This document shows positions 10,966 through 26,421 of a stretch of 64,000 nucleotides of DNA, piece by piece. The DNA is from an uncultured Planctomycetaceae bacterium. Its GTDB lineage: Bacteria > Planctomycetota > Phycisphaerae > SM23-33. The number at the start of each line of letters is the position of its first letter. The first letter of the stretch is position 1. The notes under the pieces were generated by a model. It did not search any database and was not told the DNA's origin. It worked only from the letters and a program-made list of their open reading frames with translations. The position numbers were made by a program, and so were the translations under genes. The stretch lies in contig CAYNZP010000009.1 of assembly GCA_964401835.1 (NCBI GenBank), positions 18,020 through 82,019 of the forward strand. The letters are read 5' to 3'.

Positions 10966-11124
10966 ATTAGACGAAGAGTGCCATGAGCTTGAAATCATCT
11001 CCGGCCTTTGAGTAGCCGGATAATTATTGACAAAAATCCAAGAATGCTTGAAGATATAAAGCAATCTTCGACCAATTTTTCCCCTTTCTAATTGGGTGAT
11101 GATTTGTCATTCAGAAATGAACTC

Positions 11125-12030
11125 TTAATTTTTAGGATTAGCTTTTAAATGCTCATTCAAAAATTCTTGAGTAAGTTCAATAGCAAATTTTTTAATGTGT
11201 TCTTTTGCGTTGTACTTACCAACTGAACTGCCCAAATAACCCTGTTCATATACTTCGGCTTCAGCTGCAAAGTCCGAAGACCACTCCAGGATAAAACTTG
11301 ACCTTGTTATCTCAAAGTTTATGTCGTACAAATAAAATTCATCAGTTCCTTTTATAAGATTCAAATTTAATTCACACTCAGGCAAACCATAGTTTCCCTT
11401 TAAGTTTTTTCTAGGATTAATTACTTTTACGCCAGCTTTTCTAAATTCAAATTCAACAGTTCGTTCTAATTCCTCTCTAGATAATGGGCATTCTTTATCA
11501 ATTCCTCTAATTAATAATGAATAACCTTCAATGCCTTTTAAATATGAATTAATGCCTTTTTTAAAATCTTCATTCAGTTCATCTTGATTAATTCTATTTA
11601 ATATCCATCCAGTTAATTGCGAATATGTAGGGCCATTGAGCTCGAATTTTTCTTTTTCATTTTTCAGTCTTTCTATTTCTGCATTTTTCTGAATTACTAA
11701 TTCATTCAGTCTTTCTTCTTCTGGTAATTCATTAATATCTTCAGGATCTGATTCAGAGATTTGATTTAAATCCAGAAGTTTAGATTTTAGGTGGTTATTC
11801 TTTGTGTATAAAGCTGTACAAAGTATCACACCAATAAAAGCGGCAATTGCCATAAAAGAGATTAGCCGGCCATTCTGCCACCAAGCTAAAGATTTTGTGT
11901 TTGGTATTAATTGCCAAACATGCCCGCAAGCTCCACACTTTGCTTTCTTCCCCATGGCATCATCACTTAGTCTTACTGGATTATTACAGTTTGGACATTG
12001 CGTATCCATCTTTTGCCCCTTTTCCTTCAA
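11125..12030 (-). CDS. Zinc-ribbon (MJ0042-type) / TM / coiled-coil protein with unknown C-terminal domain
   Basis: CPNCNN...CGACGH zinc ribbon, one TM (ISFMAIAAFIGVILCTALY), acidic coiled coil, ~170-aa C-terminal domain. Confidence 0.5.
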   Translation of the reverse strand: MKEKGQKMDTQCPNCNNPVRLSDDAMGKKAKCGACGHVWQLIPNTKSLAWWQNGRLISFMAIAAFIGVILCTALYTKNNHLKSKLLDLNQISESDPEDINELPEEERLNELVIQKNAEIERLKNEKEKFELNGPTYSQLTGWILNRINQDELNEDFKKGINSYLKGIEGYSLLIRGIDKECPLSREELERTVEFEFRKAGVKVINPRKNLKGNYGLPECELNLNLIKGTDEFYLYDINFEITRSSFILEWSSDFAAEAEVYEQGYLGSSVGKYNAKEHIKKFAIELTQEFLNEHLKANPKN

Positions 12031-12176
12031 ATGACGTGACTGATAATCTTAAAATCTTAATCAAATAAAGCTTACAGTCAATAATTCAGTTTATAAATCT
12101 GCCCAATAACTTGATAACTTTAGCTGTTTACTTGATAATCAGGCAGATAATTAGCCAATCTCCTAAGGGGAAAACG

Positions 12177-12917
12177 ATGAGAAAATTAAGTTACCTGGGG
12201 CTTTTTCTAACTTTTCTAATCATTCCGTCCGTCATTTGGGCCATAGATGCTGAAAATAAGGCTATCCCAAAATTTGAAAAGTTAGATTTATCCGATTCAA
12301 CAGCTTATTCGATTACAAGAGTTGTTGACGGCGACACTATCATCGCCAACATTGACGGAAAAGACACAACCATCAGGCTTATAGGGGTTGATACGCCTGA
12401 AACCGTCCATCCAAGCAAGTCTGTTCAATATTACGGCAAAGAAGCATCTAACTTCACAAAGAATTTGCTACAAGGTGAAAAGGTCTATCTTGTCACTGAC
12501 CCCCAGCAAGGCAAGACTGACCGATATGGCCGAACACTTGCTTATGTCTATCGAGCACCTGGTGGTCTATTTGTAAATGCCGAGATTATTCGGCAAGGCT
12601 ATGGGCATGCGTATGGGCGGTATCCATTTAAGTATCTTGAAGAATTCAGGCGGTTGGAAAAGTTTTCAAGAGATGCTGAAAAGGGATTATGGGAAGTCCG
12701 GCAGATTACCAAATTTTCTTCAAAATCTCCCTTAATGCCAACAGTTGTTAAACCCAAATCAGACACAGACAATGTTACCGTCTATATAACACGAACAGGC
12801 AAGAAATATCACAGGGGGAGTTGCAGTTATCTTCGGAGAAGCAAAATTCCTAAAAATCTTAGTGACGCCAGAGCGGCTGGCTATGGGCCATGTAGTCGAT
12901 GTGGCCCTCCTAGATAA
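12177..12917 (+). CDS. Secreted thermonuclease (staphylococcal nuclease / SNase fold) with Cys-rich C-terminal tail
   Basis: Signal peptide. SNase motifs (VVDGDTI, IRLIGVDTPE, DRYGRTLAYVY). C-terminal CSYL...CSRCGPP. Start chosen at the RBS-supported ATG. Confidence 0.75.
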   Translation: MRKLSYLGLFLTFLIIPSVIWAIDAENKAIPKFEKLDLSDSTAYSITRVVDGDTIIANIDGKDTTIRLIGVDTPETVHPSKSVQYYGKEASNFTKNLLQGEKVYLVTDPQQGKTDRYGRTLAYVYRAPGGLFVNAEIIRQGYGHAYGRYPFKYLEEFRRLEKFSRDAEKGLWEVRQITKFSSKSPLMPTVVKPKSDTDNVTVYITRTGKKYHRGSCSYLRRSKIPKNLSDARAAGYGPCSRCGPPR

Positions 12918-12933
12918 TTAAAAGGGGAAGCAC

Positions 12934-13395
12934 ATGGCAAAGATAAAATATCAGAAATTAATCTTGGTGATGTTGATTGGGATGGGTCTTTCTAGTATCG
13001 CTTTTTCTCGACAACCCCGCAAAAGGCAAAAACCATGGTGGGAATCAATCCCATCAAGCCAAGTCAAGAAAATGGGGCTACATAAGCTTTCAACGAGAGA
13101 AAAAAATGAACTCTTGAATTTTTTTATGAGTGTCCTAAATGGCTCGGGGGATGTTGCGGCAAGAAAGTACCTTGAGCGTAAAGGCTGGGAAAAGATGACA
13201 GTAGCAAAAAAAGCCTCTTCGGGAAAATTGATTCTCATCGACGATATTGGAAGGCAGTATCTTGCGGAATCATACGTTGGTTTTTATGGAATCTTTAAAG
13301 GCGATTGTGTGTGGCTAGAAAGTACCTTTGGTTATACTGACATGATTACCCCAGACGGCGACACGGAAAACGCAAAAATTGAGACGTTGAATTGA
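12934..13395 (+). CDS. Hypothetical secreted protein
   Basis: Signal-peptide-like N-terminus. Co-directional with the nuclease, 16-bp spacing. Confidence 0.4.
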   Translation: MAKIKYQKLILVMLIGMGLSSIAFSRQPRKRQKPWWESIPSSQVKKMGLHKLSTREKNELLNFFMSVLNGSGDVAARKYLERKGWEKMTVAKKASSGKLILIDDIGRQYLAESYVGFYGIFKGDCVWLESTFGYTDMITPDGDTENAKIETLN

Positions 13396-13604
13396 AAACT
13401 ATACAAGGTTTTCTTTACTATAAACTGACCATTCTTAAATTTTCATCCAGTCACAAAGAGGGCTGGAATTGTTAAGAAATCGCAAAAGATGCTTGAAGAT
13501 ATAACGCTACTTTTGGTCGATTCTAAAAGCCTCTATGGTTTATACCTATCTTGGAGGTTTTACTTTTGTGATTCAACAAACAATAACCGCAATCATAATT
13601 TGAA

Positions 13605-14111
13605 TTATTGCCATCTAACCTCGGGACTTGTGATTCTCCAGTCATCTGGACGGATTGGTTCTATCAAACCGGGCCCGTGAACAACTTCATCTTGTATTAC
13701 AATTATCTGGTCAGTCCAATCTGCTTTTCGATAGGCTAGCTTGATTTGAAATGGCAAATTTGGAAGTGCTGCTTCTGTAGCATTTTCTTCAGACTCATTT
13801 TTCTTTAACCAGCGTTCAGCTTCAATAAAAACCTTTGCCTTAAATTTGCCTGGGGGTAAAGAACGCGGCAACTCTTCAATATTATCTTCAAATTTAAAAT
13901 AACCTCGCTCAGGTTTCCTAATGTTTGGCTGAGAATAATAGAATTCATTTCCTGCTTTTATCTGATAGTCCAATCTCGCATTTGAATGAGACACGTTTAA
14001 TTCGAGTTCAATTTCGATTTGCAGCAGCTTGCTTCCAAGCTTATTAAAAGAACCAAATTTTTTAGAAATGACCATATAGCTACATATTCCGTCTCTATTG
14101 TTTGTTTCCAT
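13605..14111 (-). CDS. Hypothetical protein (island)
   Basis: ORF only. Confidence 0.35.
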   Translation of the reverse strand: METNNRDGICSYMVISKKFGSFNKLGSKLLQIEIELELNVSHSNARLDYQIKAGNEFYYSQPNIRKPERGYFKFEDNIEELPRSLPPGKFKAKVFIEAERWLKKNESEENATEAALPNLPFQIKLAYRKADWTDQIIVIQDEVVHGPGLIEPIRPDDWRITSPEVRWQ

Positions 14112-14388
14112 AATCTGCCCCTTTCTTCCCTAAAAATGAAACAACACCTTTTTATTTTACCCTTAAAACAAAATTTTCAAAATTTAGGGGCATTGGCAAG
14201 CGCCCCAATTTGTATAATAGTGTATCTAGTTAAGGGCCAGTAAGTCAGTGAAACCCAAGAAAACCCTGCCCGGCTAGATTAAGGTATGCCAAGGCGTGGT
14301 AAGGTATGGTACGGTTTGGTATGGTTTGGTATGGAAAGCACGGCATGAAGCTTTAATAGATTCATGCCGTGCCTAATTACTGGTTTCT

Positions 14389-14917
14389 TTATGTTTCTAT
14401 TAAAATGTTGGAAATTTCTTCTGCCAGCATCTCCGCAATCTCCGCTACGGAACCTTCAAAGACTTCGCCATCGGCAGATTTACGAAACATAAACCGGCGA
14501 TTATTAGCCCCTTCATCAACCAGCGATACTTCTTCTACATCAATGTCGAAAATTTTCTTTTTTCGTTTAGCCATTAGCCACCTTCGCATTCCCAGCCATT
14601 GAAAATGAGTTTATTTTGCCTTTTTTAATCTTGGCCCAAAGGTCATCGTCCAAAACTTTGACTGTCATGTACCAAGCCCCGGCTGGAATGTAATCCCTGC
14701 CCTTGTAGGTATCCCGTTCAGCTTGAAAGGATTCAACAACCACTGCATCGGCACTTCCCGCATGTTGTTCGCCGAGATTGAAACCATTCTTGGCAAAACT
14801 TTCCATGGCTTTGAAAATTTCTTCCCTATCCGTCCAGTCTCCATCGGCATCGACAGTATTTGGTTCGTAGACGATTCCGCCGACCAATCTCTTATCTTGC
14901 GATTTTATAAAATCCAT
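14389..14917 (-). pseudogene. XkdF-like phage protein (DUF2213-like) split by a frameshift into 14567-14917 and 14389-14589
   Basis: N-part GIVYEPNTVDADGDWTDREEI and C-part VSLVDEGANNRRFM are both XkdF-family hallmarks. 23-nt overlap in different frames at an A/T homopolymer (KRKKK). Confidence 0.5.
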
Positions 14918-15003
14918 AGAACATCATCTCTAAGTCGGGCAACAACCGGCCAGCCATGTTTAGCTAGCGCTGGCCGGAGTTCCCATTATTTGAAGAATTT
15001 ATT

Positions 15004-15507
15004 TTAATAAGCTGAACGTGCGCCAGCCCAAGGAGCTTCCTGCAAGTCATGGCCTATAAATACTGCGCTGACCTTGCTTCCTACGCCGCTCGAATCATAC
15101 TGAACATTCACATAGCGGCTCACATTTTTGCAATTAACAACGTACATGCCGTCTTCTGTGATAGAACTAATCGTATTGCTGGAAACGGTGAGGTCAGAAA
15201 CTGAAGCGCCAAGTAAGCCTTGTGCGTACAAGTTTGAAGTATCGCTTGTCAGCACAATTTGAGCCGTGCCATCACTTGAAACGGCTGCTAAAGCTGTGCC
15301 AGACGTTGCAAAATCTGAAATCAAACTCGTCCAGACTTCGACATTGCGAACATCACTGCCAGCGGCATTGTCAACAACCAGAACAAGGGTTCCGTTCTGA
15401 GCGCTGCCAGCATCTATTTCACCAACCAGCAAGTCAGAACCAGCTGCGCCGGTTGCTGAATTGTTTTTCAAAAGTGCGAATCTACTTTCGGGAATAATAC
15501 CTTTCAC
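15004..15507 (-). CDS. Hypothetical phage structural protein (Ser/Thr/Ala-rich, possible decoration or Ig-like)
   Basis: Directly downstream of the capsid gene. Low-complexity beta-rich composition. Confidence 0.3.
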   Translation of the reverse strand: MKGIIPESRFALLKNNSATGAAGSDLLVGEIDAGSAQNGTLVLVVDNAAGSDVRNVEVWTSLISDFATSGTALAAVSSDGTAQIVLTSDTSNLYAQGLLGASVSDLTVSSNTISSITEDGMYVVNCKNVSRYVNVQYDSSGVGSKVSAVFIGHDLQEAPWAGARSAY

Positions 15508-15523
15508 TTTAAATCAACCTCCT

Positions 15524-16615
15524 TTAGCTTGTGCTAATTCCCTTAATGACAACGAACGATTCGGGATGTCTGAGCAAAATGCCGACGTGCTTAATCACCC
15601 TCAAATGAACTTGGTCACGATAAAACGCATCGTAACTGTGCATCGATGTTTCGATTCTCAGGCCACGATTTTCGCCGATAATGAAATCCCTCCAATTGCC
15701 ACAGACTATATAGGTTTCGTCTGCATCTGGCATGTTGGTAACAGCCATTTCATTTGTAATACCCAACGGCCTGCCGTAAAGCGTCCTTAAATCAATGGTC
15801 GAATACCTATTATCATTCTGGCTTCCAAGGATGTAATTGCCTTCAGCATCCTTCAGCTTTTCAAGCTGGTACTCGATAACAGGTGGTGCAATAAATCCGG
15901 TAAGCTTTGAGCTTGAAGTACGAAGTTGATAATTGGCTTCAAGAATATCATCAAAACCAATCCCTGAACCATTTAAGTCTGTGCTTTGAACTCTTGGGTT
16001 GTAGTAGATACCCAAAGGCTCAGTGCCTCCTGTGCCCTCCAAGAATACCCTGTCTTCCTCCAGTGCGATTTGGGCTGCCAGTTCTGCACGAATTACATCT
16101 TCCGCAGCATCGGCATTGTCCAAAAGTTCTCGACTCATCTTGTAGATGCAGGTCGCTTTGCTGACCTCTAAAACCTTTTTGCCGAAATCCATAGAGGTGT
16201 CTTCTGAAATGGTTGCATTTTCGCTACCCCAGGTGATTTGGGGGCCGTTTTCTACAGCAGCATATGAAAGTTTGGGGCCTTTCATGTTCACGGTGCGAAT
16301 ACCGGGCATTTTACGAATTACTGATTCGTCTTTTAAAAGCTCAATAACACCGCCGGCCAGTTGTTCAGGCACAAGAAACCCACCCTGTGCGCCACCATCT
16401 TGGCCAAAAGTTTTATAAATTCGCTTTTCGTTATCTGCTCCTTGCCAATCATTGAAAATTGCACCTTTTAGATATTTGGCGATGCTAACATTCGATTCTC
16501 CAACCTCGATATCGCCGAAACTTTTCCTTACCCCTCTTTCAGATTTGACTGAATTTTGAAGCCCCTTGGCAAACGCCTCGATAAATTCAGCCTTCTCTTT
16601 TTTCGTCATTTTCAA
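15524..16615 (-). CDS. Phage major capsid protein, HK97 family
   Basis: 363 aa. Pattern typical of TIGR01554 (GGFLVPEQ..., ...ELLDNADAAEDVIRAELAAQIALEEDRVFLEGTGG). Confidence 0.7.
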   Translation of the reverse strand: MKMTKKEKAEFIEAFAKGLQNSVKSERGVRKSFGDIEVGESNVSIAKYLKGAIFNDWQGADNEKRIYKTFGQDGGAQGGFLVPEQLAGGVIELLKDESVIRKMPGIRTVNMKGPKLSYAAVENGPQITWGSENATISEDTSMDFGKKVLEVSKATCIYKMSRELLDNADAAEDVIRAELAAQIALEEDRVFLEGTGGTEPLGIYYNPRVQSTDLNGSGIGFDDILEANYQLRTSSSKLTGFIAPPVIEYQLEKLKDAEGNYILGSQNDNRYSTIDLRTLYGRPLGITNEMAVTNMPDADETYIVCGNWRDFIIGENRGLRIETSMHSYDAFYRDQVHLRVIKHVGILLRHPESFVVIKGISTS

Positions 16616-16834
16616 ACTACATCAAAACTCCTTAAAATTATTGAAATATGGACATACCAATATTGGTTGAAATAAAACTACTGTTCACCGGCAGCTTTTA
16701 CGCTCCGTTATTAGAAATGGGCTCCTGTTACTTCTAGGCAGCCTTGAGAAATGCTTCCATCAGATGATTGGCAAGCGTGAGAGTTCCGCGAATGGGCAAC
16801 CCTCTACATATATATTATACTAAAGGCAGGAAAA

Positions 16835-17125
16835 CTAGCCCGCTCTTTTAAATTGAATGCCATTATCGCCCGGATATGGCTTTCTGTGGTCATGCTCCCC
16901 TGCAACAATTTCCAAGGGAATACCCTTCGGGAAGGCCTTGCAGATATTGCCCTCTATGAGGTGTTTACAATAATGACATTGCGGGAACCCGCCCATGACT
17001 TCTTCGATGAATTTTAGCTCTAATTCATTCCACGCTTTTATTTGTTCACTTGTTTGGCCATTTTCAGGAAAATCCTTTTGGGCTTCGTCTAGTGCTCTTG
17101 TTCTTTTCGACATAAGACTCTCCAC
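16835..17125 (-). CDS. Hypothetical protein (Cys/His-containing)
   Basis: ORF only. CHYCKH...C motif. Confidence 0.3.
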   Translation of the reverse strand: MESLMSKRTRALDEAQKDFPENGQTSEQIKAWNELELKFIEEVMGGFPQCHYCKHLIEGNICKAFPKGIPLEIVAGEHDHRKPYPGDNGIQFKRAG

Positions 17126-17244
17126 GAACTGGTTTTAAGCCATTTTTTCATTTCCAATACACCTTCAGGCATTTCCTTCATAATAATTGATTACAAGTAA
17201 TCCTCATTAATCCTAGCCATGTTGCAAAATGCTTCTTTGACAAG

Positions 17245-17850
17245 TTATTCATCATATAATCCTGATACACCATCCTTCATATCTTCAAAGGGAACATCGG
17301 CGTACATATTGGCCGTTGTAGCAGGCGAAGCATGGCCCAATTGCTTTTGAACTTGCCTAAGGTTTTTGGTTTTTCGTAATAGATGAACTGCCATAGTATG
17401 TCGAGCACAATGAATTGATAGGTCTTTTGGCAATCCTGCTCGTTTGATTTCAGCTTTCCATATTTGCTGAAGCCCCTGGGCGGTTAAAGGCCCGCGTTTC
17501 CCTATGAATAACGAACCTTTTTTATCAATAGATTCCCCTACGGTATCTTTCCATGCAATGAATTCTTTCAAATGCTCCAGAAGCTCAGGAGATATGGCAA
17601 GGGTTTCAGCTAATGGTTTTTTACGCTTTAATCTTCTTACCTTCAAAGCTCCTCGTTTCAAATCGACATCGCCAATCCTAAGATTTGCCATTTCTGAAAC
17701 ACGCAAACCAGTAGACAAAGCCAAATCCACAACCATCCAGCTCAATACGCCGGTTTTACGCCCCTGAGCTATATCTTTTAATGCTCTATGTTCGCTGAAC
17801 GTTCTTAACTGTCTGGCCTCCTCGATGCTCATGTATCGCTGCCTATCCAT
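17245..17850 (-). CDS. Tyrosine recombinase, catalytic-domain-only (201 aa)
   Basis: R...HCARHTMAVHLL...LGHASPATTANMY catalytic residues. Lacks an N-terminal core-binding domain. Confidence 0.75.
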   Translation of the reverse strand: MDRQRYMSIEEARQLRTFSEHRALKDIAQGRKTGVLSWMVVDLALSTGLRVSEMANLRIGDVDLKRGALKVRRLKRKKPLAETLAISPELLEHLKEFIAWKDTVGESIDKKGSLFIGKRGPLTAQGLQQIWKAEIKRAGLPKDLSIHCARHTMAVHLLRKTKNLRQVQKQLGHASPATTANMYADVPFEDMKDGVSGLYDE

Positions 17851-17961
17851 TTCTACACCCTCTATTCAATAGTTTATAGCAATCTTTCAATATATTATAA
17901 GCTATTTCTGGGGGTATAAAAGCGTGATTTTCAATATATTTATCTAATTTTATATTGAATA

Positions 17962-18696
17962 TCAATCCTCGAAATCCGTATGCCTAGTCCAGCCGGGGTC
18001 GGGGCCATCGCCGATACATTTAAAAGCTGAGCCTAAACGCTCAGACGGCAATTGCTTCGGCTGGATATCTGAAACAATAGGTAAATCCTCTGTTTCTTGG
18101 ATAGGCGTATGAATATCTGATTGCTCATTAGATTTGCTTTGCTCAATAGGCTCTTGGCTCTGCTTGTTATCTTCGCATGGCAAAGTAAAGCCGGGCTTGG
18201 TTACTATGGTAATGTTTCCCTCACCATCCAAGCCCTCAAACTTTTTTAAGTTCATTAGCAGTTGAGCCGCGCTGACGGGGGATTTTTTCAGCAAGTCCAA
18301 ACAAAATTTTTCGACCCCATGCCTCTTTAGGGCTCGATGAAAAGCAGAAAGAAGGCCTAAATCTTCGTCATCCCCCTCCCCTGAATCCACACATGTGTTC
18401 TCAGTGTTCTTTTTATGTCCTCTACCCGGCCCGCCTGGGAAGCCCTTGAGGAAGTGGCCTTTGGAGTCTTTATATTGGGAATAATCAATGTTATCAATAT
18501 TATCCGGAGGTTCAGGATTTACTTTAGTGTCTGAAATGAGTGGAAGATTATTATCAGTTTCCACATGCCCATCTAAATTTGATAAGTCAGATTGGTTTTG
18601 TACCTCTATTATATCAACATCATTTGAGCTATTTTTTTCACTATTAAGATATTCTATTTTTCTTTTGAGCCTTTGTTTCAAATTTCCATCAATCAC
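17962..18696 (-). CDS. Hypothetical acidic protein
   Basis: ORF only. Highly acidic, low complexity. Confidence 0.3.
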   Translation of the reverse strand: MIDGNLKQRLKRKIEYLNSEKNSSNDVDIIEVQNQSDLSNLDGHVETDNNLPLISDTKVNPEPPDNIDNIDYSQYKDSKGHFLKGFPGGPGRGHKKNTENTCVDSGEGDDEDLGLLSAFHRALKRHGVEKFCLDLLKKSPVSAAQLLMNLKKFEGLDGEGNITIVTKPGFTLPCEDNKQSQEPIEQSKSNEQSDIHTPIQETEDLPIVSDIQPKQLPSERLGSAFKCIGDGPDPGWTRHTDFED

Positions 18697-18853
18697 ATGA
18701 CATCAACTCCAAATATTTGAACAAATATTTACCGAATATTTACTTTACATCTTTGGGTTACTAGTTATTAGTTTTGACCAGTTTTTCCATATAACATTAC
18801 ATGAGGCATCTCTAAGAGCGTTAATGTGAAAACTACCCTTTAACTGGTAACCG

Positions 18854-21043
18854 TTAACCTTTCCTTTTCGCCTCACGCATCTTTTGAATTCTTGCTACGT
18901 CGTCATTCGCAAAATCAATGCCCAAATAAACCAATTTCGTTGTGCCATCGATTTTTACCCGGTCTCTATTAAAACCTAATTGACTAATTGCCCGCCCAAA
19001 GCTTGTGTAATTATCAAGCCATTGATACTTTGGAATCTGGTTATCCTTGCACCATTTTTTATAATGGCCCCTCAATTCAGCAGCAGGAATGCTATACCCT
19101 TCGCCTGTTATACATTTTTCGGACACGAACTCATTGAGAAGATTCTCTTCCTTGCGATATTCGTTTGTTGCGAACTTTACTTCCTCCGGCTCGGCAAGGC
19201 CCTCTTTTTGCCATGCAAGACAACCTTCCAATGCCCAATTAAGAATACCAGATAATTCGGCTTGTAGTTTTACTCCCAAGTGCCTATCACACTCTTCTTC
19301 AGATATTACGATATTAAACGGAATAAGCTTAATTCTATCCCAGATTGCGTGTGTATCTTCTTCAACCTTGGGCTTATTGTTCGTAATTAAGACAGTTTTG
19401 TTTGTCCTTTCGAACTGGAAATAATCCTGTCGCATAAATCGAGCTTTAATAAACTTGTCTCCCGTCAGATTCTTGACAAGTTGTACTCGCATCTTGCCGT
19501 TACGCTCAGTTTCTGAAGCTATTATCAATCGCTTACCCATAAGGTCGGCCAGTTCTGTTGGATGCTCGTTGTATTTTCGCACGCTTAATAGATTAGGCGG
19601 CGCATAACCAGCATATTCCCCCATCATAGTCAATATGGTATCCAAAAAGGTATTCTTGCCATTGCGTCCTTCGCCAAAAAAAATTGGCAGAATTTGCTCG
19701 CTCACATCACCAGTCAACCATGTGCCGGTAAGTTTCTGAAGATATCGAATTAGGTTTTCGTTATTACCCAATACACGCTTGAGGAACTTATCAAATAAAG
19801 GACACTTCGCTTCCGAATCGTATTGAGCTGGCGCCATTTTAGTTATCAAATCTTCCTTCCTGTGCTCTTGAAATTCTCCTGTCTTCAAATTTAATGTTCC
19901 GTTTTGACAATTAAAAAGGAAAATATCTTTATCTAAATCTTCGGGCGAAACGACTAAAGCTTGATTGTCCTTTGCCATACCAACAGCAGCTCTAACTCTT
20001 TCTCGACTTAAACTTTTCTCAATATGTTTACCCAATGCTTTACAGACAGCAGAATCGGTAGATGTTTTAGCTTCATCGTAAATATCTTTGATTGCCTGAA
20101 TCATTAGAGAGTTTACAGAATCAGTTAGGTCTGGAGCCCAGTATTGACCGTTCCACAGATACCATTTGCCCTGTTGTGGACAATATTTCACCTCGTTGCC
20201 ATGCTTCTTTGCGAATCTCAGTGCATTTCCTTCATCTGTCAGAGAGAACTGGTCCGGTAAAATTGTGCCCTCTGTGGTTCGCATCACGACAGAAGTCTCA
20301 GTCGAATGCTGGTAGCCCATGGCGCTTTGAACAATTTTTATAATCTCCTCTTCCGACAAAGGAGGCACACACCGTTTATTTTCAGAAATGATAGCGACGT
20401 ATACCGATTCAGAAGTCAAGCCAAGTTTAGCCATTTTACAGGCCTTGCTGAAAAGGAAGTCATTTCTTTTGCCCTCCGGAATTGCTTCGTCTGATTGGTT
20501 GACAACTGGAGAATTTTTCTTTTTTAATTTCTCCAACAACCAAGACGGAGCCTCTGCAATTTCAACATCCTCGGGACTACAATTTTTTGCCCATTTGTAG
20601 CGAGTTCCTGAACTGTGTAAACTTGGTGGAACAATAACACTCCCACCTTCGCCTTTAATATCTAAACCTTCGCCTAACCCACCATTATTACAACGGATTT
20701 CTTGGTTTTCTGGATACCGAAAAAAGATATGGCAACCACCGCCGCCTGTTTCCGCCATTACCGTCTCCGGTAATGGTTCGAATTCAGATTCTAGCATTTC
20801 AAGAGATTCATAGCCGCCCGGTTGATAATCAACATCGAGAACAAATATTCCGCTCTCTTTTCCCGTTGCAATTGCAATGTTCTCATCGGCAAATCCGTTA
20901 TTCCACCAGTTTCGAATTTGCGTCTCATCTGTCGTTGCGTCTTTAAACCCATGCTTCGTTAAAGGTATTTTATCCCCACGTTTGACAGGAAAAACATGAA
21001 AACCCTTTTGGGCGTATTTCAATGCCCTATCCAAATTTTGCAT
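18854..21043 (-). CDS. Bifunctional PrimPol-domain / D5_N-P4-type primase-helicase
   Basis: N-terminal bifunctional primase-polymerase domain (HVFPV...KDATTD...VLDVDY). C-terminal P4/D5 helicase Walker A (GEGRNGKNT). Confidence 0.8.
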   Translation of the reverse strand: MQNLDRALKYAQKGFHVFPVKRGDKIPLTKHGFKDATTDETQIRNWWNNGFADENIAIATGKESGIFVLDVDYQPGGYESLEMLESEFEPLPETVMAETGGGGCHIFFRYPENQEIRCNNGGLGEGLDIKGEGGSVIVPPSLHSSGTRYKWAKNCSPEDVEIAEAPSWLLEKLKKKNSPVVNQSDEAIPEGKRNDFLFSKACKMAKLGLTSESVYVAIISENKRCVPPLSEEEIIKIVQSAMGYQHSTETSVVMRTTEGTILPDQFSLTDEGNALRFAKKHGNEVKYCPQQGKWYLWNGQYWAPDLTDSVNSLMIQAIKDIYDEAKTSTDSAVCKALGKHIEKSLSRERVRAAVGMAKDNQALVVSPEDLDKDIFLFNCQNGTLNLKTGEFQEHRKEDLITKMAPAQYDSEAKCPLFDKFLKRVLGNNENLIRYLQKLTGTWLTGDVSEQILPIFFGEGRNGKNTFLDTILTMMGEYAGYAPPNLLSVRKYNEHPTELADLMGKRLIIASETERNGKMRVQLVKNLTGDKFIKARFMRQDYFQFERTNKTVLITNNKPKVEEDTHAIWDRIKLIPFNIVISEEECDRHLGVKLQAELSGILNWALEGCLAWQKEGLAEPEEVKFATNEYRKEENLLNEFVSEKCITGEGYSIPAAELRGHYKKWCKDNQIPKYQWLDNYTSFGRAISQLGFNRDRVKIDGTTKLVYLGIDFANDDVARIQKMREAKRKG

Positions 21044-21107
21044 CTTACATCACTACTCCTATTTTTAGCCTAATCTTCAAAAAAGGATGCGAAAAGGAAC
21101 GACAGGA

Positions 21108-21398
21108 TTAGGCTGCCGTTCCTTCCCCTGCTCCCGCAGAGCTGCGCAGGCCAGCGCCGCTGCATTTTTTAAACATGGTTACGACCGCCGTAACCTGATA
21201 AGTATTCCAAAGAAATTTCCCATTGATTTGCTTGCAATATCCGCCCGCAAAACTTCCACGAGTGGGAAAACCTCGGTCATACAACAGTCGGTATTTTTTC
21301 AGAATTCCCCGAAGTTCAAGGGGAGTTAATCCGTTTTTTCTTGCGATTCGATTAAGCCTATTGAAAACAATTTCGTTTTGCTCGTTTTGCTCATTCAT
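21108..21398 (-). CDS. Hypothetical small protein (island replication/regulatory operon)
   Basis: ORF in tight array with the primase. Confidence 0.3.
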   Translation of the reverse strand: MNEQNEQNEIVFNRLNRIARKNGLTPLELRGILKKYRLLYDRGFPTRGSFAGGYCKQINGKFLWNTYQVTAVVTMFKKCSGAGLRSSAGAGEGTAA

Positions 21399-21717
21399 CT
21401 AACTCACCCCAAATTTGTTGAAGAATATCAGGGTGTGGCAGCATCGTATATTCACCAGAAAAGGGGTCAAAAAACTCAAAGCCGATTTCTGGGCCATCCT
21501 CTTTAATGAGTAATCGAATCCATCCTGATTCGAACGCCCGTTCTAGGTTCTCCATGAACTTTTCTAGGCCAAGATTAAAATCACCGTAATATTTATGTTT
21601 GATTAAGCCAGTAGCTAAATCCGCTATCATTGCTTGAAATGCCGAATGCAACTCTGGGTCCGACTTTTCGAGCTCAGTCAACGTGTACGGCAATGGATTG
21701 GGATATATCAACTTCAT
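21391..21717 (-). CDS. Hypothetical protein
   Basis: ORF, overlapping neighbours. Confidence 0.3.
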   Translation of the reverse strand: MKLIYPNPLPYTLTELEKSDPELHSAFQAMIADLATGLIKHKYYGDFNLGLEKFMENLERAFESGWIRLLIKEDGPEIGFEFFDPFSGEYTMLPHPDILQQIWGELDE

Positions 21718-21731
21718 TGCAACCTCCTTTA

Positions 21732-21968
21732 TTAATCCTCAACTTTTTCAAATAATCGGTCTATTTCTCTGCCTTTGTTACAATCTCTTTCCCAAAGTTC
21801 TTTTGAAATCCTGAAAGGCGGCGACCCCGGTTTATATTTTTTGCTTTTTTCGGGATAATGATTTCTTCCGCTATACGATTGTCCTGTAACGCTGTCTCGC
21901 CAATATCGCCCGGGGCGAAGTTGAACGAGGACGCCCGATTCGATATTCGATAATTTCGATGTTGTCAT
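21732..21968 (-). CDS. Hypothetical protein
   Basis: ORF. 1-nt overlap with the upstream gene. Confidence 0.3.
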   Translation of the reverse strand: MTTSKLSNIESGVLVQLRPGRYWRDSVTGQSYSGRNHYPEKSKKYKPGSPPFRISKELWERDCNKGREIDRLFEKVED

Positions 21969-22582
21969 TATTTAACCTCCGATTTTGTTTTGAATGATTT
22001 GATAAAATTCCGAAGTTCTTCTGCATTGATAGACAAGAATGGGTTTGAGCTAAATGCCAAAAAAGCAGAGGCCTTACGCATTATCGCTCTGCCTTCACGA
22101 TGGAGTTGTTCGGCTTTTTCTGCTGATGCCAATGCAGATTCGAGAGCTTCTATTGCTTTTTGAGCTTCAGCTTTTTGCTTTTGGGATAATTGTTCGAGTT
22201 TCTGAACCGAGTGCCATGAAGAATAGGACTTTTCGAGATAATTCGCCCATGCTTTGATTGCCGCACGAGCATCATATTTTGAATTCTCTCTGCTTTCCAG
22301 ATATTCAAATAAGGCGATCTCCTCCAGTGTTTTTGGCCTTCGCCCGCCCGTGGGATGGGTTTTGCCCCATTGGTCAAGTGATTTGCGCCGGGCTTCGGCC
22401 GCTACGATTCGCAAAGTTTCTTCTCGATCAACATCTGCGTTGATCGCGTCACATTCTTGGCACGTTCCCAGAAGTGCGGCCCGCCGCGAATCCCCCTTGG
22501 TAAGTTCCTTAAATCCCTCTGGTTTGCCTTCTAAATATTTGTCTTCTAGTGCTTTAAACTGATTCTCGTAATTATCTTGCAT
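21968..22582 (-). CDS. Hypothetical protein
   Basis: First gene of the leftward operon, diverging from the recombinase across an AT-rich spacer. Confidence 0.35.
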   Translation of the reverse strand: MQDNYENQFKALEDKYLEGKPEGFKELTKGDSRRAALLGTCQECDAINADVDREETLRIVAAEARRKSLDQWGKTHPTGGRRPKTLEEIALFEYLESRENSKYDARAAIKAWANYLEKSYSSWHSVQKLEQLSQKQKAEAQKAIEALESALASAEKAEQLHREGRAIMRKASAFLAFSSNPFLSINAEELRNFIKSFKTKSEVK

Positions 22583-22965
22583 TCACAAATCACTTCCTTA
22601 ATTATCTTATAAACATCTATATTTTCAGGGTTTGAAACCCATCCTCCTATTTTAATATTGTACTAAACGTTTCAAATTTTCGAACCAAACCTGCTCCTAC
22701 ATTAATTCATAACTTTCCTTCATTAATATAATTACACCAATACTTTTGTTTTTAGCTCATTTTTTCCAGATTTTTCTGGCCAAACATCAATTTAAGAGCC
22801 AGAAAAAACTCTTGCATTAATATATTATACTGAAACGAACATTCCTCGTGACAAGAAAATTTTCATGTTTTAACATCTTTTAATACAAGCTTTTATATCT
22901 TTTTAGTCACTATTGTTGTTCAAATACTATTTGCTTGAGTATTTGCTTTTCTATATAATACAAAT

Positions 22966-25080
22966 ATGACTAAAGCATTTTTAATGACAAGAGTAAGTAC
23001 CGAAGCGCAAGCCGACGTTGGCGAAGGCCACAGTGCCCAGTTACATGCCTGCCAAACCATCGCAAAAAGTAACGGCTTTTCAAACACTGAACATGTTTCG
23101 GAAACGATTTCTGGATTCACCGAAAATATTGATGACCGCCCGAAGTTGGCAAAAGTTTTAAATGAGGCTCAAGCAGGCGACATTCTCATCTGGGACAAGT
23201 CCGACCGTATTGCCAGAGACAAAAAAGCGAAAGAATCAATTCTTGATGAAATGGCAAAAAAAAGGCTTCGCTGTATTGTTGGCGGAACAGAATATGATTT
23301 AACCAATGAAGAACACCGCTTAATTTTAACGCTATTCGGGGGCTTCGATCATTACATGGGCCGAGCCCTTGTAGCTCGTATGAAATCCGGTAAAGAAGCA
23401 CGCCAACGCAAGGGTGGAATCATTTACACTAACGCCCCTTTCGGATTGACGTATCAGCCTCCCAAAGACTCGAAAAATTGGGAAGAGCGAACCTTTGTAA
23501 TTAATCCCACCGAAGGCAAAATCGTAAAAAAGATTTTCGAAAAATATCTATCAGGTTGGTCACAAGAAAAAATAGCTGATTGGCTTAACCAACAAAATAT
23601 AACCACAAGGCGTGGTCGAAGGTGGACGGGCCATAAAATTAGCAATTTGTTGAAGAATCCCATGATAGCTGGACGGGTTTATGCCAATCTTTATAGCTAT
23701 GCCCCCGGCACTCGAAGCCGAAAAATGAATCCCCAAAGGGATTGGCAATTCGTCAAATACATAGGCGAGATAGTTCCGTGGTCAGACTTTGGACGAGTGC
23801 AACAAAGATTAGAGCGCAATCTCCCACCGCATCGTCGAAACTCGGGCGATACATCCAAACAGAAAAAAGGACGAACTGCGAAAGACAGATATTTTCTTGC
23901 AGACCGCTTAAGCTGTGGAAAATGTAATGGCAAAATGGGATTGATGGGCGGAACGAAAAAACCGGACGGCGAATACGTCCGTTATTACAAATGCTCGTGG
24001 AGCAGGAGTACCCGTCGAACTCGGGTACAAGGGAAGGATTGGTGCGAATCATCGGGAATTTTTGCCGACCACGCTGAATTTCTTATTTGGCACTTTGTCC
24101 GTAAGGTCTTTTTGAATCCGAAAGGTTTTTTCAGCGATATACTAAAAGGTAACCCCGCAAAGGCCGAACTAATAAATGCAAAGCAGGAACTACAGGGTTT
24201 TGAAAGTAGGCTTGATACAGTAAATTCAAAAATCGAAAAAGCTATCGACATGCTTCTCGAAACTGAAAAAGGCTCTGCTCGTGAAGACACTTTAAATGCT
24301 CAACTTAAGAAACTCGAAAAAGACCGCGATTCAATTAAAGAACAAATCGCTCGGCAGTCCGGTATTGTTGTGGGGATTGAACAGTTTGCAAATCAGTTAG
24401 ATTTTGTGAAAGACAATAAAGAAGCATTGAATGGAATCCAAGTTGTAGCAAGGCGAGTTATCGATGATTTAAATTACGAGCAACGAAAAGAATTAGTTAA
24501 TGCCGTACTGGGAAATTTAACATTCAAAGTTGAAACAATCAGTAAAGAAGAATGGAAAACTTACCGAAAATGCCCTAGTGGGCAATTTGGAAAGGACTTA
24601 TACGTTATTTTAAGGGGCGTTGAGAGAATTCCTACTGAACCGCCGAAAACGAGGTTAGAGGCAATAGAACAGACGGTCTACGAAAGTAGTTTATCCGACC
24701 TGCATAAAATTCCATCCGTAGGCTGTGCCTTCAACCCTAGGGCAAAAGCACGTGGACAGGCCTTTAAACTTGTTCCGCAAGGCCGATACAATGTTCGCAA
24801 CGCTTTAAGAGATATGGCGAGATTTGCAAAAAGCCTCAAGCCCCGTATCTACAAAAAATACAGAGACTTAGATTCAACTAAAAATAATAATACTGATAGA
24901 AGACGGCTGCGTTACGATACCGCGCGTCCACAGTACGCTAAAGTTCCCGGCCCGGCTGATGCTGGTAGCTGCCATGAACCCCTGCCCATGCGGCTACTTC
25001 ACCGACCCCAAAAAGCCGTGCAAATGCTCGCCGAACCAGGTCCAGCGTTACCTGTCGCGCATTTCCGGGCCGTTGATTGA
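22966..25080 (+). CDS. Large serine recombinase (resolvase/invertase N-domain); 3' end reads through the island/chromosome junction
   Basis: TRVSTEAQ catalytic serine motif, recombinase domain, Cys-containing zinc-ribbon-like region, coiled coil. The last ~60 codons lie in high-GC host DNA. Confidence 0.8.
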   Translation: MTKAFLMTRVSTEAQADVGEGHSAQLHACQTIAKSNGFSNTEHVSETISGFTENIDDRPKLAKVLNEAQAGDILIWDKSDRIARDKKAKESILDEMAKKRLRCIVGGTEYDLTNEEHRLILTLFGGFDHYMGRALVARMKSGKEARQRKGGIIYTNAPFGLTYQPPKDSKNWEERTFVINPTEGKIVKKIFEKYLSGWSQEKIADWLNQQNITTRRGRRWTGHKISNLLKNPMIAGRVYANLYSYAPGTRSRKMNPQRDWQFVKYIGEIVPWSDFGRVQQRLERNLPPHRRNSGDTSKQKKGRTAKDRYFLADRLSCGKCNGKMGLMGGTKKPDGEYVRYYKCSWSRSTRRTRVQGKDWCESSGIFADHAEFLIWHFVRKVFLNPKGFFSDILKGNPAKAELINAKQELQGFESRLDTVNSKIEKAIDMLLETEKGSAREDTLNAQLKKLEKDRDSIKEQIARQSGIVVGIEQFANQLDFVKDNKEALNGIQVVARRVIDDLNYEQRKELVNAVLGNLTFKVETISKEEWKTYRKCPSGQFGKDLYVILRGVERIPTEPPKTRLEAIEQTVYESSLSDLHKIPSVGCAFNPRAKARGQAFKLVPQGRYNVRNALRDMARFAKSLKPRIYKKYRDLDSTKNNNTDRRRLRYDTARPQYAKVPGPADAGSCHEPLPMRLLHRPQKAVQMLAEPGPALPVAHFRAVD

Positions 25081-25462
25081 CAGAATAGATATTCACGTCG
25101 AAGTGCCGCCCGTCCCGTGGCGACAACTGCGAGGCGGCAATGGCGATGGTATCAGCTCCGCGGATATGCGCGACCAGGTAGTCTCTGCCCGTGCGATACA
25201 GAAAAGTCGTTTCAGCGGCAATGGTTCTACTACAACTAACGCTACGATGGCCAGCAAACAGGTTCGCAAATTCTGCCAGCTGGATTCATCGGGTGAATTG
25301 CTACTCAAACAGGCAATGACGGAGCTGGGCCTCTCCGCCCGCGCACATGACAAGGTGCTGCGAATTGCAAGAACCATCGCTGATATCGAAGGCGAGGAAA
25401 AAATCCAGCCGCACCACCTGGCCGAGGCAATTCAATATCGAAGATTAGACAGGAGATTGTAG
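24899..25462 (+). pseudogene. comM: comM/yifB C-terminal fragment (EDGCVTIPR...FPARLMLVAAMNPCPCGY...)
   Basis: Resumes the conserved YifB sequence immediately after the RQPLE motif that ends the N-fragment, in a different frame from the recombinase. Confidence 0.85.
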
Positions 25463-25538
25463 AAAACACCACTTGAGAGTCACTCGGAAAAGCTATTGTA
25501 ATTTTTAAACAAACTTCAACTTCTATCATTACCATCTG

Positions 25539-25754
25539 CTAGGGGCAGTCATTGCTTGGAACGTATTCAATCAAATCCCCTGGTGTGCAATTAAGGACTT
25601 TACAGATAGCCTCAAGGGTTGAAAAGCGAATCGCACGAGCTTTATTGGTTTTCAGAATCGACAGATTATTTACTGCAATACCCGTAGCTTCAGCCAGATC
25701 TTTAAGCTTCATCCTATTATCAAGAAGAAGATAGTCCAAACGAATGCGGATCAT
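25539..25754 (-). CDS. XRE/Cro-type HTH transcriptional regulator
   Basis: 71 aa, HTH (LKDLAEATGIAVNNLSILKTNKARAIRFSTLEAICKVL). Confidence 0.7.
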   Translation of the reverse strand: MIRIRLDYLLLDNRMKLKDLAEATGIAVNNLSILKTNKARAIRFSTLEAICKVLNCTPGDLIEYVPSNDCP

Positions 25755-25766
25755 GATATCTATTCC

Positions 25767-26270: not shown

Positions 26271-26421
26271 AGTAATTCTCCTTTGGATTAACTTGTTATA
26301 TGTGTAAAAAATAACGACAAACGTTATATTGTCAATGATAAACTTTTTTGTTTTGGTGCATCCATCATTAATTATTGCTAGCTCAAGCTGCCATTCTGTT
26401 TTCAATCGCCTGCGGTCAGAC

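Follow-up and report, generated by a model that had tools for sequence, protein, structure and literature searches.

A 14.9 kb integrative element in comM of an uncultured planctomycete, probably a helper-dependent phage satellite

Introduction

P4-like satellites are integrative and carry a primase-helicase of the D5/SF3 type, and they act on helper heads through Sid (capsid size) and Psu (decoration); P4 has a tyrosine integrase and no major capsid protein (MCP). In the PLE of Vibrio cholerae, a satellite-encoded scaffold, TcaP, remodels helper capsids. PLEs have their own replication initiator and encode no MCP. They integrate by means of a large serine recombinase (LSR) (PMC9618062). The marine VEIMEs (Eppley et al., PMC9618062) are small integrative elements whose recombinases are of the tyrosine or serine type and whose primases are of the PrimPol/D5 type; they have been interpreted as satellites. 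[quoted passage not shown] The PICI-like tycheposons of Prochlorococcus (Hackl et al., bioRxiv 10.1101/2020.12.28.424599) are integrative elements of 10–20 kb with their own primase/helicase module and a recombinase that is mostly of the tyrosine and in some cases of the large serine type; they have no portal, TerL or tail genes, and the sole packaging-related gene is a lone MCP (or terS). Seven tRNA genes serve tycheposons as integration sites in cyanobacteria, and the PICI-like forms are reported never to carry cargo.

The island described here lies in a 64,000-nucleotide window (the whole stretch of DNA analysed) from an uncultured Planctomycetaceae bacterium, and its closest described architecture is that of an MCP-carrying PICI-like tycheposon, with which, going by the published account, it shares size class, integration, a replication module of its own and the lack of portal, TerL and tail genes. 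It differs in lying inside comM, by way of an LSR, and in having a 4.3 kb cargo region, and it adds a small second recombinase alongside three head components: the probable cement protein, the scaffold peptide and the XkdF domain. The preliminary description of this DNA had held satellites of this kind to be uncharacterised in Planctomycetota, a claim of novelty that needs qualifying, as the PICI-like tycheposons already described combine an integrase and a primase with a lone MCP. The label of capsid-forming PICI that it offered does not hold under the published definition (PMC10085698): the island resembles cf-PICIs in size, integrase, primase and HK97 MCP, but it has none of their head and packaging set, and with portal, head-tail adaptor/connector, TerS and TerL all absent we reject this identity. 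Unlike cf-PICIs it would need chimeric heads made with the portal and terminase of a helper, and it has an LSR as integrase and no AlpA-type regulator. With PLEs it shares integration by an LSR and replication functions of its own, but the replication protein and host differ and the sequence relation is limited to the LSR superfamily; Psu, Sid, Delta and AlpA of P4 are absent from the island in Pfam and PHROG scans, and the MCP sets it apart from VEIMEs.

Results and Discussion

Integration into comM

The island occupies positions ~10010–24901 of the window and its ends are set by the split comM (yifB) gene, at 10007–10009 and 24899–24901; the resulting 14.9 kb bears out the earlier estimate of about 15 kb. 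Its GC content is 0.33–0.45 as against about 0.52 in the flanks, a contrast indicating foreign composition, and the host genes within the window are ordinary housekeeping genes. The N-terminal comM fragment (9035–10009, plus strand, 325 aa) matches Pfam ChlI and positions 1–135 of the 207 in the Mg_chelatase profile, and reads on through seven junk island codons to a stop at 10033, the translation ending in MIRQPLE followed by island-encoded TSIIISI. The C-terminal fragment (24902–25462, plus strand; DGCVTIPR... to the stop) covers Mg_chelatase positions 151–204 and Mg_chelatase_C (1.3e-33). At attL the crossover core GAA (10007–10009) reads ctcGAA followed by acaagtataataatt, with island DNA from 10010; the same GAA recurs at attR (24899–24901), where aataatactgataGAA is followed by gacggctgc and comM picks up again at 24902. 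The reconstructed attB, CAGCCGCTCGAAGACGGCTG, contains a CAGCCG/CGGCTG dyad, and in the reconstructed attP an imperfect dyad surrounds the core. The LSR gene stands at the right end of the island (22966–25080, plus strand) and encodes all three LSR domains (Pfam Resolvase 2.2e-20, Recombinase 6.4e-22 and Zn_ribbon_recom; PHROG 95 integrase 4e-73); its reading frame crosses attR, with island DNA up to codon 645 and comM read out of frame in the final 59 codons. The LSR inserted the island into comM, and both att cores are clean. Six independent contigs bear the island, all 100% identical and integrated wherever a junction is reached, with no excision, empty site or circular form seen among them. 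We note that the interval first described, 15004–22582, covers just the core operon; the LSR, the comM insertion, the tyrosine recombinase, the 4.3 kb cargo and the 61-aa scaffold-like ORF had been missed or placed elsewhere.

Replication module and backbone genes

The core genes form a tightly packed leftward operon, in which start codons overlap stop codons and which ends in a hairpin. At its head stand four small ORFs (96, 108, 78 and 204 aa; 21108–22582, minus strand) with zero family matches in Pfam, PHROG and NCBIfam scans, and these are followed by a 729-aa replication protein (18854–21043, minus strand) with PrimPol, PriCT_1, D5_N and SF3-helicase (DUF5906) domains (Prim-Pol E 6.5e-47, D5_N E 8e-33; PHROG DNA primase 1.4e-140), which judging from its sequence is complete and intact. 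Both components of this module are as the preliminary description reported. Just 3' of the primase gene are three 11-nt repeats (CCAAATATTTA; 18709–18743, Tandem Repeats Finder), candidate origin iterons.

The next gene, u244 (17962–18696, minus strand, 244 aa), is the backbone marker of the element family. It combines the motif G.F.KG.PGGPGRG, a three-helix domain (LLKKSPVSAAQLL) and a C-terminal hairpin; in the AF2 model mean pLDDT is 61.7, with the helical domain predicted confidently (about 94 at residues 115–157). Pfam, PHROG and PDB searches gave zero matches and u244 is an orphan in a word-indexed search, while exhaustive HMMER searching retrieved 22 remote relatives; that it acts in packaging or binds DNA is speculation. 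Between primase and capsid genes lies a small tyrosine recombinase (17245–17850, minus strand, 201 aa) consisting of the catalytic domain alone (PF00589 3.1e-31), probably a multimer-resolution or switch recombinase. Upstream of it, a repeat search found inverted repeats (17886–17964; I4, I9), TGATATTCAATATA and TATATTGAAAATCA separated by 12 nt, with a third TATATTGAA copy, a candidate recombinase site or operator.

Distant relatives

Through the u244 search we reached three distant elements, L113, L110 and L115, with GC of 0.57–0.65 as against 0.42 in the island and protein identities to it of 26–48%, all ORFs being intact. Common to all four is the gene order LSR, u204-like, u78-like, replication protein, u244-like, small recombinase and head genes. 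The 204-aa protein (u204) matches a 302-aa protein of L113 and a 344-aa protein of L115, and the 78-aa protein (u78) is 39% identical to an 81-aa protein of L113 (E 7e-12), so that both are conserved backbone genes and presumably regulatory. The small tyrosine recombinase is 33% identical to a 211-aa enzyme at the equivalent place in L113, and in L110 and L115 a small serine resolvase occupies its slot. The head cassette of L113 consists of an MCP (41–43% identity) and a u167-like protein, that of L110 and L115 of XkdF and a scaffold-like protein; the island MCP and its L113 counterpart show no clear sister relation, and their capture may have been independent. None of the three contigs (10.2–14.3 kb) contains portal, terminase or tail genes; L113 and L110 each break off at one end, and further genes may lie past the contig ends. 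Because three such distant elements share this stripped-down layout, the island most likely belongs to a satellite family not described before.

A 10.6 kb circular metagenome element (L105 / L092-094) has a similar D5-type primase-helicase (34% identity over 423 aa) with a PF05065 MCP about 2 kb on. However, its S78 protease, portal and Rep3 initiator with 22-nt iterons amount to cf-PICI-like content, the identity between the two MCPs is only 25%, and the element has no u244, u204, u78 or LSR backbone.

Head genes and their phage origin

The HK97-fold MCP reported earlier is present at full length (15524–16615, minus strand, 361–363 aa) and covers the PF05065 profile nearly end to end (E 3.9e-50, positions 1–279 of 280). 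Within its family of 33 proteins (40–51% identity; named relatives are in MAGs of Phycisphaerae and Brocadiales, the one hint in the sequence at Planctomycetota) it keeps all 24 invariant columns and departs at 5 of 74 conserved ones, which is mid-range. The jelly-roll protein beside it (u167; 15004–15507, minus strand, 167 aa) is probably a capsid cement or decoration protein. An XkdF-like protein had also been reported, and we find it just beyond the interval first given (14567–14917, minus strand, 116 aa), as a stand-alone XkdF (Peptidase_S78_2) domain (Pfam 5e-27; PHROG 3017 head maturation protease 2e-31) that in phage relatives forms the C-terminal part of 331–454-aa proteins. Its stop codon is overlapped by the ATG (ATGGCTAA) of a 61-aa ORF (14389–14574, minus strand), which matches only the N-terminal ~40–45 residues (MAKRKKK..DVEEVSLVDEGANNRRF) of a phage scaffold-like protein of about 300 aa (tblastn/phmmer; 12 phage loci, 46–62% identity); alignment with these proteins reveals no scaffold remnant downstream. 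At the end of the head operon stand about five 10-nt phased repeats (14280–14334; Tandem Repeats Finder) and a hairpin with a perfect 15-bp stem (14338–14372; inverted repeat I6), a candidate terminator plus pac/ori-type site. A Cys-rich protein of phage origin, u96 (16835–17125, minus strand, 96 aa), shares 54% identity across 46 aa with an ORF located upstream of the XkdF-fusion gene in phage contig L022.

The head genes have homologues at 40–72% identity in one lineage of real phages, and u167, XkdF, the 61-aa ORF and u96 match one and the same set of phage contigs; on these sequence matches, the head genes of the island derive from a single recognisable lineage of tailed phages. In these phages the MCP gene directly follows that of the ~300-aa scaffold-like protein, XkdF is part of longer fusions, and a portal gene lies less than 10 kb from the MCP in 30 loci.

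Only part of a phage head module is represented among the island head genes, as one would see if a temperate phage integrated in comM had undergone internal deletions and rearrangement that removed its genes for portal, terminase, scaffold, connector, tail and lysis, the rest now drifting. A scaffold gene surviving as its first ~40–45 residues and an XkdF cut down to its domain fit such a history, both could be deletion relics and to that extent count against a satellite, and the island contigs show zero population variation for a test of selection. Even so, we regard the heavily decayed prophage, which the preliminary description had raised as an alternative, as very unlikely. Neither the LSR nor either att junction is damaged, no frameshifted or stop-truncated genes are seen, and the order MCP, cement, XkdF, scaffold N-terminus is not derivable from the phage order through deletion alone. 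Moreover, u204, u78, u244, the small recombinase and the LSR were not found in the related phages, nor a PrimPol gene beside this MCP family, but the former are common to three portal-less elements in very different genomes; this shared backbone with its intact ORFs is hard to reconcile with decay.

Missing phage functions

Scanned against Pfam, PHROG and NCBIfam, all substantial island ORFs together yielded no portal, large terminase or tail genes, and connector and lysis genes are likewise absent; an iterative jackhmmer search recovered portals in 30 MCP-bearing phage loci and zero in the window. The largest unassigned ORFs (301, 244 and 204 aa) fall short of the length of a portal or large terminase. 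The absence first reported is thus borne out. There are nine island ORFs with no detectable family, and u244, basic and partly disordered, could be a virion-internal protein, so that an autonomous very small virus or virus-like element might hide its remaining structural proteins among them. We consider this extremely improbable, as tailed phages with HK97-fold capsids depend on a portal and a terminase, neither of which is detectable, the unassigned ORFs are all of 301 aa or less, and the cargo ORFs have the signal peptides or PEP-CTERM anchor that typify proteins of the cell surface. Several observations count against a satellite: no helper phage was identified within the window, excision was not seen, u244-family genes were not found among IMG/VR viral contigs, TerS, a pac/cos site, a repressor and an excisionase were not recognised in the island, and the relatives number only three.

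Cargo genes

The cargo region (10010–14340) encodes a secreted C-type-lectin-like protein with a PEP-CTERM anchor (10357–10965, plus strand, 202 aa; Pfam Lectin_C 3.6e-6, PEP-CTERM 9.8e-6), with no homologue found in the related elements; a zinc-ribbon and transmembrane protein (11125–12030, minus strand, 301 aa; Pfam Zn_ribbon_4 1.5e-7), with none found among the retrieved related loci; and a secreted staphylococcal-nuclease-fold protein (12111–12917, plus strand, 268 aa; Pfam SNase 8.9e-24) that matches the PADLOC candidate 'SNc+LTD' (4.4e-42). A 153-aa protein with a signal-peptide-like N-terminus (12934–13395, plus strand) and a 168-aa ORF, cargo or otherwise (13605–14111, minus strand), gave zero matches in Pfam, PHROG, NCBIfam and PADLOC searches.

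A rival reading is that the island, mobilised by its LSR and replicated by its PrimPol, is a cargo or interference island whose head genes only poison the assembly of infecting phages in defense of the host, and which spreads rarely or otherwise, for instance by vesicles or transformation. The truncated scaffold peptide and domain-only XkdF do resemble dominant-negative fragments, no packaging specificity gene was recognised in the island scans, the cargo includes the nuclease with its PADLOC match, and tycheposons with cargo and no packaging genes are the majority of their group and vesicle-enriched (bioRxiv 10.1101/2020.12.28.424599). We nonetheless think it unlikely that transfer in capsids plays no part: a complete, conserved MCP with cement exceeds what interference requires, and L113 retains both in the absence of the fragments. 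Known satellites pair interference with their own transfer, and the two readings are not exclusive.

A proposed life cycle

On balance we favor the view that the island is of the phage-satellite type, integrating and replicating with enzymes of its own while depending on a helper, and that it probably belongs to a previously undescribed family. The satellite interpretation put forward at first is strengthened by the backbone shared with L113, L110 and L115, by the absence of portal, terminase and tail genes, and by the intact ORFs. LSR-mediated excision would be triggered when a helper phage of the related lineage infects the cell or is induced, and the directionality factor could be encoded by one of the small ORFs or come from the helper. 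The excised circle would replicate through the PrimPol-D5 protein from its own origin, with the small recombinase maintaining monomeric replicons or flipping a switch. The island MCP and cement, together with the portal, scaffold, terminase and tail of the helper, would form particles sized for about 15 kb, drawing assembly away from the helper, and the XkdF domain and mini-scaffold peptide may target the helper scaffold/XkdF interaction. After transfer, the LSR would re-insert the element in comM of the new host, which would inactivate a transformation gene.

Boundaries of the island and its insertion in comM

The island lies within a block of low GC content (0.33-0.45 over ~10-27 kb of the window, compared with ~0.52 in the flanks) and divides a comM/YifB gene into an N-terminal fragment at 9035-10033 (Pfam ChlI and Mg_chelatase profile positions 1-135) and a C-terminal fragment that extends to 25462 (Mg_chelatase profile positions 151-204 and Mg_chelatase_C). 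The translation reads ..MIRQPLE|TSIIISI* across the left junction and ..IILIE|DGCVTIPR.. across the right; the corresponding DNA is ctcGAA|acaagtataataatt at attL (10007-10009) and aataatactgataGAA|gacggctgc at attR (24899-24901), with a GAA core common to both. Junction translations and junction DNA together place the island at 10010-24901, and its length of 14.9 kb agrees with the ~15 kb of the preliminary description. An assembly artefact is ruled out by the recovery of the island, 100% identical, on six contigs, which derive from five or more samples; because all public copies are identical, there is no polymorphism for dN/dS analysis.

The rebuilt attB (..CAGCCGCTCGAAGACGGCTG..) and the rebuilt attP of the excised circle (..ATACTGATAGAAACAAGTATAAT..) are each partly dyad-symmetric about the common core, the pattern expected of a large serine recombinase (LSR), and a gene for such an enzyme sits at the right end (22966-25080). 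Its product contains Resolvase (PF00239), Recombinase (PF07508) and Zn_ribbon_recom (PF13408) domains, matches the PHROG 95 integrase and carries an RVSTEAQ motif; the three domains and the short att sites with their partial dyads mark it as a member of this class. The gene spans attR, such that the integrated form encodes 704 amino acids, the last 59 of which are derived from comM in another frame, while the rebuilt excised circle would encode a 655-residue enzyme. The attP site therefore falls within the gene for the integrase itself, and the C-terminus of the enzyme is exchanged upon integration. In the distant element L115, the 3′ end of the LSR gene likewise shares 80 nt (237-316) with a flanking host ORF.

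No tRNA gene is present in the 64-kb window, and Rfam searches returned no family passing the gathering threshold in the window and no credible hit inside the island. The Pfam content of 30 host ORFs is generic housekeeping. Directly to the right of comM, a segment of intermediate GC content (25500-27000; 0.45-0.47) encodes a 71-residue HTH_26 protein and a 145-241-residue ORF of no known family ahead of a murG/ftsW cluster, and may be the remnant of an older insertion at the same hotspot. We also note a 178-nt repeat of 89% identity (~8244-8420 and 29993-30168) in host intergenic DNA flanking the island and outside the element; it could represent a repeat dispersed among intergenic regions or encode a small RNA. 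The insertion disrupts comM, a transformation gene, and self-protection has been discussed as an explanation when mobile elements interrupt such genes.

Gene content of the island

Most of the island is occupied by a tightly packed minus-strand operon running from 22582 to 14389, in the order u204, u78, u108, u96b (ORFs without a family name, designated by length in residues), a PrimPol-D5 replication protein, u244, a tyrosine recombinase, u96, the major capsid protein (MCP), u167 (a jelly-roll, cement-like protein), an XkdF domain and a 61-residue ORF, with a perfect 15-bp hairpin beyond its end. The replication module and capsid gene described previously are borne out: the four small ORFs lie at 21108-22582, the PrimPol/PriCT_1/D5_N/DUF5906 protein at 18854-21043, and the HK97-type MCP at 15524-16615 (PF05065, E = 3.9e-50, profile positions 1-279 of 280). 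The XkdF-like protein is also present, as a stand-alone domain of 116 residues at 14567-14917, slightly beyond the quoted interval (15004-22582). The small tyrosine recombinase has 201 residues (PF00589, E = 3e-31).

The left 4.3 kb (10010-14340) is cargo in mixed orientation, comprising a lectin/PEP-CTERM protein, a zinc-ribbon membrane protein, a secreted SNase-fold nuclease and two ORFs of no known family. The nuclease (12111-12917) has a Cys-rich C-terminal tail and matches the PADLOC candidate defence gene 'SNc+LTD' (4e-42); together with the lectin/PEP-CTERM protein it lends the cargo the character of cell-surface or extracellular proteins.

Several repeats lie between the genes. At 17886-17964, the intergenic DNA separating u244 from the small tyrosine recombinase gene has TGATATTCAATATA and TATATTGAAAATCA as inverted repeats 12 nt apart, along with a third copy of TATATTGAA, a candidate recombinase site or operator; the corresponding spacer in the GC-rich element L113 (6362-6505) is markedly AT-rich. 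About five phased 10-nt tandem repeats are found at 14280-14334, just past the terminator hairpin of the head operon, and three 11-nt tandem repeats at 18709-18743, directly downstream of the primase gene; either set may be a pac or ori element.

Head genes and their phage relatives

The island MCP shares 40-51% identity with 33 full-length relatives and retains 24 of the 24 columns that are invariant in the 33-member alignment. It deviates at five of the 74 conserved columns, near the middle of the family's range; the full-length PF05065 match and the invariant residues thus identify it as an MCP of the HK97 fold. The relatives are encoded in ordinary phage head modules, with the order portal (PF04860), an ORF of ~90-107 residues, an XkdF-domain protein of 331-384 residues, a protein of ~300 residues, MCP, a protein of 150-170 residues and further structural genes, and IMG/VR adds 38 loci. 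Matches to these phages are confined to five genes of the island, namely the MCP, u167 (up to 70-72% identity), the XkdF domain (37-56%), u96 (54%, in the phage locus L022 only) and the 61-residue ORF. The last can be aligned to the N-terminal ~40-45 residues (MAKRK..DxEVSLVDxxAN..FFF.K) of the ~300-residue scaffold-like phage protein, and there is nothing similar to the remainder of that protein anywhere in the island. In the close phage relatives, XkdF (Peptidase_S78_2) forms the C-terminal part of proteins of 331-454 residues; in the island it is a bare domain.

The XkdF ORF and the overlapping ORF with its EVSLVDEGAN motif could be read as a single gene broken by a frameshift, or as a pseudogene. 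We reject this reading because the two parts belong to different phage proteins and because the ATG of the 61-residue ORF overlaps the XkdF stop codon (ATGGCTAA). Among their phage relatives, the strand-like motif EVSLVDxxAN is at the extreme N-terminus of the separate scaffold-like protein (the arrangement is seen at 3062-4057 and 6509-7453 in L008, 2652-3806 and 6142-7047 in L010, and within 7791-9957 in L031). From these sequence arrangements, the XkdF domain may dock on the scaffold N-terminus, instead of or besides acting as a protease. The island order of MCP, cement, XkdF and scaffold N-terminus is not obtainable from the phage order by deletion alone.

Searches for portal, terminase and tail genes

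Large terminase, portal and tail genes had been described as missing, and the family scans, ORF lengths and portal search support this. Pfam, PHROGs and NCBIfam gave no portal, terminase or tail match for any island ORF, with unassigned ORFs followed to an E-value of 10, nor did they give any match among the island ORFs to HNH, the small (TerS) or large (TerL) terminase subunits, or a head-tail adaptor or connector, although highly divergent small proteins of the latter type are conceivable. The largest unassigned ORFs are of 301, 244 and 204 residues, so that none is long enough for TerL. Iterated jackhmmer searches with three portal seeds were positive in 30 MCP-bearing phage loci and negative in the window and in the related elements L113, L110 and L115. 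A similar search with a TerL seed verified against the PDB recovered only three distant phage loci and hence carries little weight; the absence of TerL rests on the family scans and ORF lengths. The search for a helper prophage covered the window and found none, the island's own five genes being the only matches to phage contigs.

A proposed family of elements related through u244

The u244 protein is an orphan in a word-indexed search, and an exhaustive HMMER search identified 22 remote relatives with the common motifs G.F..G.PGGPGRP and LLKKSPVSAAQLL. Neither u244 nor 21 relatives matched any entry of Pfam, PHROG, NCBIfam or the PDB, and the motif gave no hits in IMG/VR. The AF2 model of u244 is largely disordered except for one three-helix domain. 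The motif G.F.KG.PGGPGRG resembles motifs of small terminase subunits, and it is speculation that u244 is a small terminase.

Three of the relatives, all on short contigs, lie in elements that share the organization of the island, which we define as a divergent LSR followed by u204-like, u78-like, replication and u244-like proteins, a small recombinase and a reduced head cassette without a portal. L113 is an 11.1-kb contig (GC 0.65) with a divergent LSR, then a 302-residue u204-like protein, an 81-residue u78-like protein, proteins of 174, 399 and 70 residues, a u244-like protein, a 211-residue tyrosine recombinase, a 161-residue protein, an MCP, a u167-like protein and ORFs of 129, 135 and 68 residues; identities to the island are 39% (u78-like), 33% (tyrosine recombinase), 41-43% (MCP) and 28% (u167-like). 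In phmmer searches its 161-residue protein weakly matches phage ORFs (E 4e-5 to 7e-4), including a gene of L008 with a faint Sigma70_r2 hit. L115 (GC 0.57) and L110 (GC 0.64) have an LSR, a u204-like protein, u78-sized and other small ORFs, a protein of 286-365 residues, a u244-like protein, a small serine resolvase, a stand-alone XkdF domain (138 residues) and a scaffold-like protein of 274-291 residues that shares the EVSLV..PA motif at its N-terminus and has an acidic tail; L110 additionally encodes an AAA+ protein, followed by host genes. The island is thus syntenic with each of the three elements and shares pairwise homology with them, and all four lack a portal. The backbone genes are in none of the phage loci examined. 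In the phylogeny of the MCPs, the island and L113 do not form a clear group.

It had been suggested as an alternative that the island is a heavily decayed prophage. This is disfavoured, because the same reduced architecture recurs with intact ORFs in L113, L110 and L115, even though the shared proteins are only 26-48% identical and the genome compositions are very different, which argues for a functional element family rather than independent prophage decay. The gene order that deletion cannot produce points the same way, as does the occupation of the replication and small recombinase positions by non-homologous analogues in different members. We regard the u244 contexts as the decisive sequence evidence as to whether the island is a remnant or a designed element.

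The PrimPol was also tried as a path to sister elements, but its relatives in 50 metagenome loci (30-50% identity) lack a related MCP except in the unrelated L105. This element (L105 1-10702; also L092-L094; contig JGI20225J20221_1000818) is a 10.6-kb circle, repeated in tandem at least three times in the assembled contig of 42.5 kb. Its iterons are 22 nt long, and it encodes a D5 primase-helicase, an HK97 MCP, an S78 protease, a portal and a Rep3 initiator; no terminase or tail was seen in it. It is a cf-PICI-like satellite or plasmid-like mini-element; we reject it as an island relative because the portal, S78 protease and Rep3 make it cf-PICI-like.

Comparison with known satellites and a possible life cycle

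Of the classes proposed for the island, capsid-forming PICI (cf-PICI) or another satellite, only the satellite-like character stands. The cf-PICI core set consists of MCP, portal, head-tail adaptor and connector, TerS, TerL and HNH, with a left-arm integrase, an AlpA-type regulator and a primase-replicase (PMC10085698). The island shares a full-length MCP of its own and has a primase and an integrase, albeit an LSR rather than a tyrosine integrase; no AlpA, MerR or Stl-type regulator was detected among its small ORFs, and without portal, adaptors and terminases it falls outside the cf-PICI definition (PMC10085698). Judged by published description rather than by sequence, the closest described architecture appears to be that of the PICI-like tycheposons, elements of 10-20 kb with a recombinase, replication genes, and an MCP or terS as the sole packaging gene, reported never to carry cargo; tycheposons are found in Prochlorococcus, use seven tRNA genes as sites and leave partial tRNA repeats (bioRxiv 10.1101/2020.12.28.424599). 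The island, with its LSR, PrimPol-D5 and MCP in 14.9 kb, corresponds in gene content and size, but it is inside comM rather than at a tRNA gene and it has cargo. VEIMEs are without MCPs (PMC9618062), and only generic features are held in common with P4 and PLE.

The island looks like a helper-dependent satellite, and a life cycle can be proposed. The LSR would excise the island from comM, and PrimPol-D5 would replicate it, perhaps with the 11-nt repeats at 18709-18743 as iterons. The small recombinase would resolve multimers or act as a switch, with the inverted-repeat cluster at 17886-17964 as a candidate site. The element would then make its own shell of MCP and cement, which would need a helper portal for nucleation and helper proteins for DNA filling and tail attachment, while the XkdF domain and scaffold N-terminal peptide could plausibly interfere with, or adapt to, the interaction between helper scaffold and XkdF.

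Possible implications for capsid takeover

Two routes to the takeover of helper heads are known in satellites: some reshape helper capsid protein (P4, SaPI and PLE), and others bring a complete set of head and packaging genes (cf-PICI). We propose tentatively, and with a little less than even confidence, that the island belongs to a satellite family not described so far, of which it is the member with the best-defined boundaries, and that this family has a conserved backbone, interchangeable head-hijacking cassettes of helper lineage, and chimeric capsids built on a helper portal. The proposed backbone comprises the LSR, the u204 and u78 regulators, an exchangeable replication protein, the u244 protein and a small resolvase-type recombinase; the cassettes are MCP and cement in L113, XkdF and scaffold in L110 and L115, and both in reduced form in the island. 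These swaps suggest a modular capsid-takeover toolkit. If this is true, it would represent a strategy intermediate between capsid-size redirection (P4, SaPI and PLE) and full capsid autonomy (cf-PICI), in which shell proteins (MCP and cement) and pieces of scaffold and XkdF belong to the satellite and the portal and motor come from the helper. The u244, u204 and u78 proteins would serve as family markers unused by current satellite finders. Most catalogued satellites are from Proteobacteria and Firmicutes (PMC10085698), and this toolkit would lie outside both, in uncultured marine or environmental bacteria.
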